In this document: positions 13,809-14,449 of the stretch, piece after piece
Numbering within the stretch: the stretch's first letter is position 1
How the letters are laid out: every line of letters begins with the position of its first letter
DNA from: Leptonemataceae bacterium
GTDB lineage: Bacteria > Spirochaetota > Leptospiria > Leptospirales > Leptonemataceae
Direction: 5' to 3'
Assembly (NCBI GenBank): GCA_965227295.1
Contig: OZ245742.1
Span: 4,928,001 to 4,992,000, forward strand
DNA: 64,000 nt
Translations under genes and position numbers: made by a program
The notes under the pieces: model-generated
What the model was told of the DNA's origin: nothing
The model's input: only the letters and a program-made list of their open reading frames with translations
The model's database searches: none

Positions 13809-14120
13809 TTACGAAGAAGACGCCGTTCCGGTCCGCCATACCACGTTCCCCGGCATCACCTCCGCGCGTCAGTTGGAACCAGCTGTACCCAAAAAAGTCT
13901 TAATCCAGACTGGCCTTAACTTACACCACGATTCGGGGCATCGCTCGAACGAATGAAACGTTCCGGTAGCTCAAGAGCTGCGGTTCGTAACGGTTGCCGC
14001 GAGTAACATAAAGTAGGTTGCACAACCGTGAAGGGCCTTTTTTGGCTACGGCTGAGCGGGAGTTGTGGTGATTCGTTTTGCAAAGATTGTCCGCATCGAC
14101 CCGGACGTCGGTTTGTGACT
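13809..14120 (+). ncRNA. Candidate structured non-coding element, copy 1 of a tandem pair
   Basis: About 80% identical (hand count) to 14139-14449; conserved hairpins and a long-range helix; no ORF conserved between copies; strand inferred from G-U pairs. Confidence 0.45.
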
Positions 14121-14138
14121 CAGCGATCGGAACGTTTC

Positions 14139-14449
14139 TTACGGCGAAGACGCCGTTCCGGTGCGCCTTACCACATTCCCCGGCATGACCTCCGTTCATC
14201 TGCTGGAACCAGCCGTACCCAAAAAAGTCTTAATGCAGACTGACCGCCACTTACACCACGATTCGGGGCGTGCTCGAACGAATCAAACCCTCCGGTAGTC
14301 CAGGAGCTGCGGTTCGCGGCGGTGGCCGCGAGACACATAAGGTAAGTTGCGCAATGGTGAAGGGATTGATTTGGCTACGGCGAAGCGGGAGTTGTGGTAT
14401 GTCGTTTTGTTAAGAATGCTGCGTTCGACCCGGACGTCGGTTTGCGACT
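14139..14449 (+). ncRNA. Candidate structured non-coding element, copy 2 of a tandem pair
   Basis: Direct repeat of 13809-14120 after an 18-nt spacer. Confidence 0.45.

Follow-up and report, generated by a model that had tools for sequence, protein, structure and literature searches.

Introduction

Repetitive extragenic palindromic (REP) sequences are described as located for the most part 3' of genes, where the adjoining open reading frames (ORFs) are unidirectional or convergent (PMC3733652). Many REP clusters, or bacterial interspersed mosaic elements (BIMEs), are described as species-specific, and some super-families as having no dedicated transposase (PMC3733652, PMC2817692, PMC3116915). 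Here a repeat family is reported that was found by way of a stretch of 64,000 nucleotides (nt) from a Leptonemataceae bacterium (assembly GCA_965227295.1, contig OZ245742.1, positions 4,928,001 to 4,992,000 of the forward strand). This whole stretch is called the window, and plain coordinates refer to it. A tandem pair of similar segments at 13809-14449 had been noticed in the letters alone (the sequence-only reading) and had been proposed as a candidate new family of structured non-coding RNA (ncRNA). The pair is one locus of a new, lineage-specific, non-coding interspersed mosaic repeat family whose build appears to be REP/BIME-like.

Genomes and data sets

The genome to which the window belongs (G000) is a single contig of 5.94 Mb. 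It was compared with two genomes of the same genus (G001 and G002), which are distant relatives; their nadR-like orthologues are 60-61% identical to that of the window. Members of the family in G000 were collected with a two-round nhmmer profile search. Genes for the analysis of context were called with a crude caller of our own (ORFs of at least 100 amino acids (aa) plus a GC3/GC2 filter; 4182 genes), and the context counts are therefore approximate. Covariation was determined on 129 aligned full units of about 78% identity; 52 units were used for RNAalifold and for the helices proposed in the sequence-only reading, and 30 copies from G001 and G002 for the core. The constraint on single sites was determined with one unit from each of 68 arrays. 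Core copies were counted across genomes with a covariance model (R1) of the shared core of about 75 nt.

Results

The pair and its family. Tandem Repeats Finder (TRF) reported the array at 13809-14449 with a period of 329, 1.9 copies, 83% matches and 1% indels. In register, segment 13809-13939 was 87% identical to 14139-14269, and 13943-14129 was 79% identical to 14272-14458; the BLAST match between the two copies (E = 2.8e-86) was far above chance. An 18-nt spacer had been proposed to separate the copies. Its sequence (consensus CAGCTACCGCAGCGTTT) was conserved across the 129 aligned units of the family, and the unit is therefore about 329-330 nt long, with copy 2 reaching about 14458. Copy 1 occupies 13809..14138 on the + strand with its full length of 330 nt (TRF; nhmmer profile positions 1-328), and copy 2, also on the + strand, occupies 14139..14458 and ends at about unit position 320 (profile positions 1-320). 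The tandem pair as such was thus real, 83% identical and non-coding, while the supposed spacer is a part of the unit. A CRISPR-like array of repeats and unique spacers was ruled out by the same conservation of the 18 nt. The ORFs in 13798-14449 were all short, the longest having 92 aa, and the translations of all eight ORFs of the pair remained below the Pfam cut-off (best E 0.06).

Copy 1 gave 145 BLAST matches in G000, its identity with copies at other sites reaching 87%. The profile search yielded 295 hits at 118 loci, together 70,177 bases or 1.2% of the genome, in arrays ranging from a single fragment to seven units. Open frames on both strands were measured in the 56 arrays of more than 600 nt; the longest took up 20-79% of an array and never spanned it whole. 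Nor did the variability of the 129 units carry a period-3 signal (p = 0.125), and the family is accordingly non-coding. Arrays stood between convergent genes in 48 cases, between tandem genes in 61 and between divergent genes in 9, against 23.6, 70.8 and 23.6 expected (chi-square p = 1.9e-8), and their ends often lay about 0-40 nt from stop codons. Where the flanking genes were in tandem, the unit was co-oriented with them in 36 cases and opposite in 25.

The 222 flanking genes contained no recurrent family, and their largest homology cluster had four members. A recurrent neighbouring gene as the source of a partner protein was accordingly rejected. Genes sandwiched between arrays were ordinary ones, namely an MFS transporter, a lipid A acyltransferase, proteins of no known family and one rve-type transposase. 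This transposase, of 355 aa (HTH_29/HTH_28 plus an rve/rve_3 integrase core), was located inside a repeat unit (L058, G000:C1:1034861-1035931). The flanking fragments correspond to unit positions 136-241 and 230-326, and their overlap suggests that about 12 nt were duplicated on insertion. This transposase gene interrupts a unit and is not bounded by element ends. The cumulative GC skew of G000 was lowest at about 1.18 Mb and highest near 4.10 Mb. Relative to replication there was a mild bias, as the unit's + strand was co-oriented with it in only 45 of 118 arrays, compared with 52.5% of the crude gene calls.

Anatomy of the unit. The unit consists of a short linker, a degenerate inverted core (unit positions 14-89), a central part of 139 nt, the core (229-303) and a second linker. 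In the proposed build the core and its degenerate inverted copy alternate, and the long (about 139 nt) and short (about 39 nt) linkers between them complete the 329-nt unit. With model R1 the conserved core was found on the + strand of both window units, at 14037..14116 in unit 1 (positions 229-303 plus a few bases; G000:4942037-4942116, 83.0 bits) and at 14366..14445 in unit 2 (G000:4942366-4942445, 86.9 bits). Its blocks are GGCTACGG, GGGAGTTGTGG, CGTTTTGC and TCGACCCGGACG. Among the conserved core blocks are GCTACGG and CCGGACG, which place CTAC (complement GTAG) close to one end of the core and GACG (complement CGTC) at the opposite end. As judged by eye, the 75-nt core offers a candidate stem of at most 5 bp, weak in most copies in G000.

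The degenerate inverted copy in unit 1 lies at 13822..13897 on the - strand (unit positions 14-89) and ends in CAGCTGTACCCAAAAAAG. It was recognised by the 18-nt inverted repeat I4 (13880-13897 / 14037-14054, 89% complementary), and its wider similarity by eye. In the family unit the inverted core copy ends in the arm CAGCCGTACCCAWAAAAG, and the two 18-nt arms occupy unit positions 72-89 and 229-246. The alignment of the unit with its own reverse complement beyond this arm scored 34, compared with 27.9 +/- 6.3 in shuffles, and was not significant; the idea that module A of the unit is a plain reverse complement of module B was rejected outside the arm for this reason.

Arrays tended to start or stop at module borders, around unit position 1 or 328 and around 135-190, and solitary half-units of both kinds occurred in G000. 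A gap of about 83 nt in the profile hits proved to be an insert with two hairpins at unit position 17/18, present in at least 14 units. Its hairpins are CTTTCCGC-CGAT-GCGGAAAG and TCTCGCT-GAAG-CGAGA; it sits between GACGCCG and CCGGTGCG, with CCGG on both borders, and examples are found in the G000:C1 arrays 5079913-5082287, 2316319-2317373 and 890057-890834. The insert is either a small nested element that targets this one site or a variant form of the unit that became widespread.

A scan of 13300-14900 gave no promoter-like site, and two terminator-like sites compared with 2.1 expected, which is not above chance. A terminator-like consensus was seen within the core at 14045-14069, where a stem of nine pairs, G-U pairs included, is followed by GATTCGTTTT.

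The hairpin module. A further module, called H, is a GC-rich hairpin repeat of about 64 nt. Its outer stem (GCGAAYCCGCACCC / GGGTGCGGRTTCGC) has about 14 bp and its inner stem (GCCCCGC / GCGGGGC) has 7 bp. The nhmmer search found 46 copies in G000, of which 22 were within arrays, 17 headed an array on its 5' side, 6 were solo and 1 was adjacent to an array in opposite orientation. The unit start was always directly 3' of H, while H was preceded by unit position 321, about 277 or about 28, or by a gene end. Half of the 24 terminal H copies stood behind a co-oriented gene, eight of these 12 at 1-10 nt after the stop codon.

In contrast to what shuffles gave, H carried compensatory changes. Pairing amounted to 95.0%, against 90.3 +/- 0.6% in shuffles, and the double-change cells to 32, against 11.3 +/- 2.6; none of 500 shuffles was as high in either measure. 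Pair 10:57 takes three Watson-Crick forms (G-C, U-A and C-G). H therefore serves as a positive control that the covariation approach works on repeats of G000. A search of G001 and G002, which had no positive control of its own, gave no copy of H.

The only H copy of the window is a shortened one at the head of the array (13748..13806, + strand; nhmmer profile and alignment) and begins 2 nt 3' of the stop codon of the nadR-like gene. Its inner stem is complete, and 9 nt of the 3' outer arm are deleted. The junction TAAGC|CGCGAA at the gene end in the window, in which TAA is the nadR-like stop, recurs inside units (at about position 277, ...TTGCTAAGC|CGCGAA). Some upstream genes may owe their stop codon to the repeat element. 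Two arrays in opposite orientation about 38 kb apart, G000:C1:508047-509140 (-) and 546833-547982 (+), have identical H copies and flanks; a segment duplicated in inverted orientation, or gene conversion, may account for this.

Occurrence in relatives. Among 40 related genomes the unit matched two by BLAST, G001 and G002, both of the same genus, and there over only about unit positions 230-303. The covariance model counted 17 core copies for G001 and 28 for G002, against at least 150 for G000, so that the core is about 5-10 times rarer in the two relatives. There it was solitary, in either orientation and directly downstream of genes. Convergent core pairs about 35 nt apart occurred twice, in G001 (L084) and in G002 (C9:1499044 / 1499180). 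Core sites were mostly not common to the species. The gene pair around one core of G002 (L081) stands 82 nt apart in G000 with no element between, and a second site (L088) is likewise empty, while an array adjoins the orthologue in G000 at one or two of the relatives' core sites (L084, perhaps L072). Some of the relatives' cores carry insertions of 20-45 nt between GCTACGGC and GGATGCGG (L097, L090, the second hit of L084, L094 and L098), and the core itself is therefore modular.

A degenerate core pattern was also searched for in one genome per bacterial and archaeal species, a set from which records of G000 may be left out. It gave seven stretches, six of them in G001 and G002; the seventh, 37 bases in a metagenome-assembled genome of the Pirellulales, was a weak match and was set aside as probably due to chance. 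A 22-nt motif of the unit gave three stretches in metagenome contigs, which matched nothing past the motif itself, and blastn in distant mode gave no match in plasmid and phage collections.

The window locus is flanked upstream by a nadR-like gene (12708..13745, +) with an AAA_28 domain (Pfam E 2.8e-39) and a cytidylyltransferase-like domain, and downstream by an ORF of up to 496 aa without a Pfam family (14450..15940, +; from the ORF list). Copy 2 extends up to or into the beginning of the downstream ORF, whose listed start is 14450, and the true start of this gene probably lies 3' of that position. The orthologues of the two genes are adjacent in both relatives and overlap by 4 nt, GTGA in G001 (L041) and ATGA in G002 (L042); next to nadR, tblastn with the 496-aa product gave 36% identity over 337 aa in G001 and 39% over 432 aa in G002. 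The overlap in both relatives indicates that the roughly 700 nt in the window, H plus array, are an insertion of this lineage and not an ancestral leader. The C-termini of the three NadR-like proteins are completely different.

Tests of RNA structure. Rfam gave no match at gathering thresholds in the whole window, and with E values up to 10 region 12500-16000 gave four weak hits, none inside 13746-14460. The earlier statement that the pair resembles no recognised riboswitch or housekeeping RNA was thus supported by the database search. The z-score of the minimum free energy (MFE) was -0.99 on the + strand, where 15 of 100 shuffles folded as well, and +0.94 on the - strand. RNAalifold gave -20.3 kcal/mol with a covariation term of -1.28, and any double change was present in 3 of 38 predicted pairs.

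The helices proposed in the sequence-only reading were complementary in the family consensus, as 87.1% of cells were paired, compared with 28-39% when the partner was slid, but their covariation did not exceed that of shuffles. It amounted to 0.066 compared with 0.070, with 489 of 500 shuffles at least as high, and there were 3 double-change cells against 5.9 expected; on all five measures the helices were at or below shuffle level. Changes that had been said to spare pairing were no more frequent than in shuffles. The proposed AGTCT/AGACT stem was not maintained in the family, one of its pairs forming in just 23 of 51 units and a second in just 5 of 51.

A scan by mutual information with average product correction (MI/APC) over the 129 units returned mainly local blocks of non-Watson-Crick type, that is, alternative short haplotypes. 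It showed one short-range compensatory pair (59:64; C-G in 98 units, G-C in 27) and no long-range compensatory pair. Wherever both sides of the 18-bp inverted repeat varied, they did so independently, pair 76:242 being CG in 59 units, UG in 35, CA in 23 and UA in 12. For the core across species, covariation was 0.158 compared with 0.148 +/- 0.010, and 85 of 500 shuffles were as high. In covariation the proposed helices, the RNAalifold structure and the core thus all failed to rise above their controls.

Two long complementary segments were well kept. In unit positions 118-126 / 252-260, eight of nine pairs formed in 96-100% of the 129 units. The remaining pair, 125:253, formed in 87%, and changes on one side alone were mostly C-G to U-G, favouring the + strand. 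In 16-23 / 292-299, seven of eight pairs formed in 90-100% of units, and 21:294 was an unpaired C-C. As these candidate helices are nearly invariant, their pairs are uninformative for covariation either way. Of the sequence-only reading, the non-coding nature of the region, its duplication and its membership of a sequence family were upheld, whereas a discrete structured ncRNA was not supported by the folding energies (z -0.99 and +0.94), the RNAalifold covariation term (-1.28) or the helices (0.066 compared with 0.070).

Conservation of sites and growth of arrays. Mean pairwise identity among the units of the 68 arrays was 77%. Despite this divergence 47 sites were invariant and 92 differed in at most two units, where equal rates predict 0.00 and 0.21, and 73 sites differed in at least 20 units, compared with 1.4 expected; subfamily structure and gene conversion inflate such contrasts. 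The invariant blocks include GAAGACGCCGTTCCGG, GGCTACGG...GGGAGTTGTGG and TCGACCCGGACG. Their extent nevertheless points to selection acting on the primary sequence, and invariant sites together with the lack of covariation would favour recognition by a protein over RNA helices. Identity was 83.9% between adjacent units and 77.7% between units from different arrays. For 46 of 99 units the nearest relative lay within their own array, and the two results together indicate that arrays grow by local duplication.

Discussion

Taken as a whole, the family is likely to consist of a core that is, or formerly was, mobilised in trans and lies behind stop codons, that was expanded into 329-nt tandem units, that carries invariant blocks recognised by a protein, and that is joined by the hairpin H. 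Among the explanations offered in the sequence-only reading, a non-autonomous mobile unit comes nearest to the evidence. The core would have been mobilised, now or in the past, by some enzyme other than the REP-associated tyrosine transposase (RAYT), and would have settled where insertion is tolerated, directly 3' of stop codons. Arrays would then have grown locally by unequal recombination or slippage. The near-invariant blocks may be recognition sequences for the mobilising enzyme or for a host DNA- or RNA-binding protein, and are probably not RNA helices. Where an array is transcribed, it would be a passive 3' untranslated region or intercistronic RNA. H would act as an RNA or single-strand hairpin and could protect or terminate a transcript just after the stop codon.

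Several observations weigh against this interpretation. Strong per-site conservation in every copy is not predicted for decaying selfish DNA, and leaves room for a host function at the level of RNA or DNA. Identity between arrays reached at most 92.5%, with no near-identical copies at different loci, so that there is no sign of recent spread. The Y1_Tnp/RAYT family (PF01797) had no hits in G000 (93.55% complete) or in G001 and G002 (93% each), while the same search matched 6 of 14 reference genomes as a control. An outward-facing pair of core ends flanking a gene within 0.5-4 kb was not present in G000, and the 118 5' and 118 3' junctions were ragged, without recurrent terminal inverted repeats, target-site duplications or precise termini. 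The inverted second core is recognisable mainly by its 18-nt arm and short motifs. Finally, invariant stems cannot covary, so that RNA structure may still be present.

A more novel account, regarded as unlikely, takes the family for a new type of mobile mosaic element that does not depend on RAYT; alternatively, the 329-nt units would be transcribed and serve as protein-bound RNA modules, the invariant stems hiding their structure. As a RAYT-independent element, the family would have a core of about 75 nt that is recognised by some recombinase or nuclease and inserts after stop codons, sometimes supplying the stop, and its arrays would be built by self-targeted insertion together with local duplication.

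That the arrays are host-domesticated clusters of DNA binding sites, kept by selection for a nucleoid-associated, topology or recombination protein, is rather unlikely. Such a role would fit blocks that are invariant in 68 arrays despite 77% identity and show no covariation, the lack of a strong strand preference relative to transcription, and the mild replication bias (45 of 118 arrays co-oriented, against 52.5% of genes). It is harder to reconcile with the ragged lengths and ends of the arrays and the many shortened copies. G001 and G002, moreover, manage with 17-28 cores only, without unit and H, no candidate protein has come forward, and subfamily structure and gene conversion could inflate the apparent conservation.

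The original proposal, a structured ncRNA (small RNA, ribozyme-like RNA or scaffold) in many tandem copies transcribed from the + strand, is likewise rather unlikely in view of the tests described above. The long complementary segments (118-126 / 252-260 and 16-23 / 292-299) are indeed well kept, the proposed helices pair in 87.1% of cells compared with 28-39% when slid, and about 90 near-invariant positions show constraint. The downstream gene, formerly coupled in translation to its neighbour, also probably needs transcription through the array. These points are countered by the missing Rfam match, by MFE z-scores of -0.99 and +0.94, and by covariation that stayed within controls in the RNAalifold structure, the proposed helices and the core while the same approach detected H. 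The sides of the 18-bp inverted repeat, where both vary, do so independently, and an RNA read from one strand would hardly be expected to have so weak a bias of orientation as 36 units along their tandem neighbours and 25 against them.

It is very improbable that the pair is a cis-regulatory leader, riboswitch-like or an attenuator, of the gene starting at about 14507, as had also been suggested. Although the pair lies directly upstream of that gene and is co-oriented with it, its orthologue lacks such a leader in both G001 and G002, where no element separates it from the upstream gene and the two genes share 4 nt. The unit, furthermore, flanks 222 unrelated genes, more often at gene 3' ends, and has no cis-regulatory match in Rfam.

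A decayed protein-coding repeat or an assembly artefact is hardly credible, although 330 nt would equal 110 codons and repeats are prone to mis-assembly, since no frame spans any array, the period-3 signal and Pfam hits above cut-off are missing, the consensus unit of 329 nt is no multiple of 3, contigs from two public DNA runs cover both flanks with short array pieces that match without differing letters, and the copies at the 118 loci are individually diverged. The contigs of the public runs break within the repeat, where paralogues pile up, and their joints at about 320-350 nt reflect paralogous or tandem copies.

For annotation, recognition of the family spares about 118 loci (70 kb) from being reported singly as novel RNA genes, and it accounts for many long, apparently empty intergenic regions of G000. 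The family offers a clean example of a repeat with 17-28 copies in two species and a roughly tenfold expansion with a 329-nt tandem unit in a third, without RAYT, and it has split at least one gene pair that overlaps in both relatives. Strong per-site conservation without covariation argues for a protein partner. Should this partner prove to be a mobilising enzyme of a new kind, the family could serve as a tractable system in which to study REP-like elements from outside the Proteobacteria.

Comparison with known systems

Satellites of about 330 bp that contain hammerhead ribozymes are known from animals. Tandem bacterial ncRNAs and ribozyme satellites resemble the family in the unit of about 330 nt, the tandem arrangement and the non-coding nature, but here no Rfam match, ribozymes included, was obtained at E up to 10, and there was no covariation. 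Miniature inverted-repeat transposable elements (MITEs) are likewise non-coding and of high copy number, vary in presence between related genomes and may be nested in other modules, as the 83-nt insert may be here. The family differs from them in that no terminal inverted repeats, target-site duplication or parent insertion sequence were found, and tandem reiteration is atypical of MITEs.

Species-specific prokaryotic repeats, as described in PMC3372372, are also longer than 85 bp, confined to one species and of little similarity to sequences elsewhere. They are a descriptive class that implies no mechanism, whereas the core of the present family is common within the genus. REPINs (Bertels and Rainey 2011, PMC3116915) share with it a unit of two inverted short elements, interspersed between genes, and the convergent core pairs of G001 and G002 are a further likeness. 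REPINs are about 100 nt long, are mobilised by RAYT and seldom occur as long tandem arrays; in the present family one partner is degenerate, RAYT is missing and arrays have up to seven units.

The REP clusters and BIMEs of Enterobacteria, Pseudomonas and others differ from the family in size, since the unit of about 329 nt is ten times longer than REPs of 20-40 bp, in the core of about 75 nt, which is mostly non-palindromic, and in the absence of a RAYT (Y1 transposase) from G000, G001 and G002. Like the family, REP clusters and BIMEs, its closest described parallels, are reported to be high-copy, intergenic and restricted to a species or genus (PMC3733652, PMC2817692). Their site preference is shared by the 118 loci, with convergent contexts enriched and divergent ones depleted. 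REPs bear a GTAG or CGTC tag at one end; the complements of GCTACGG and CCGGACG of the core contain these letters and, as noticed by eye, may be comparable. In REP clusters, elements of alternating orientation are joined by conserved linkers and repeated in tandem, and the present unit may be built in a similar way, the inverted similarity being significant only over the 18-nt arm. Finally, REPs are short imperfect palindromes with compensatory stem variants, and H, a palindrome of about 60 nt with compensatory changes, may be their counterpart in the present family.

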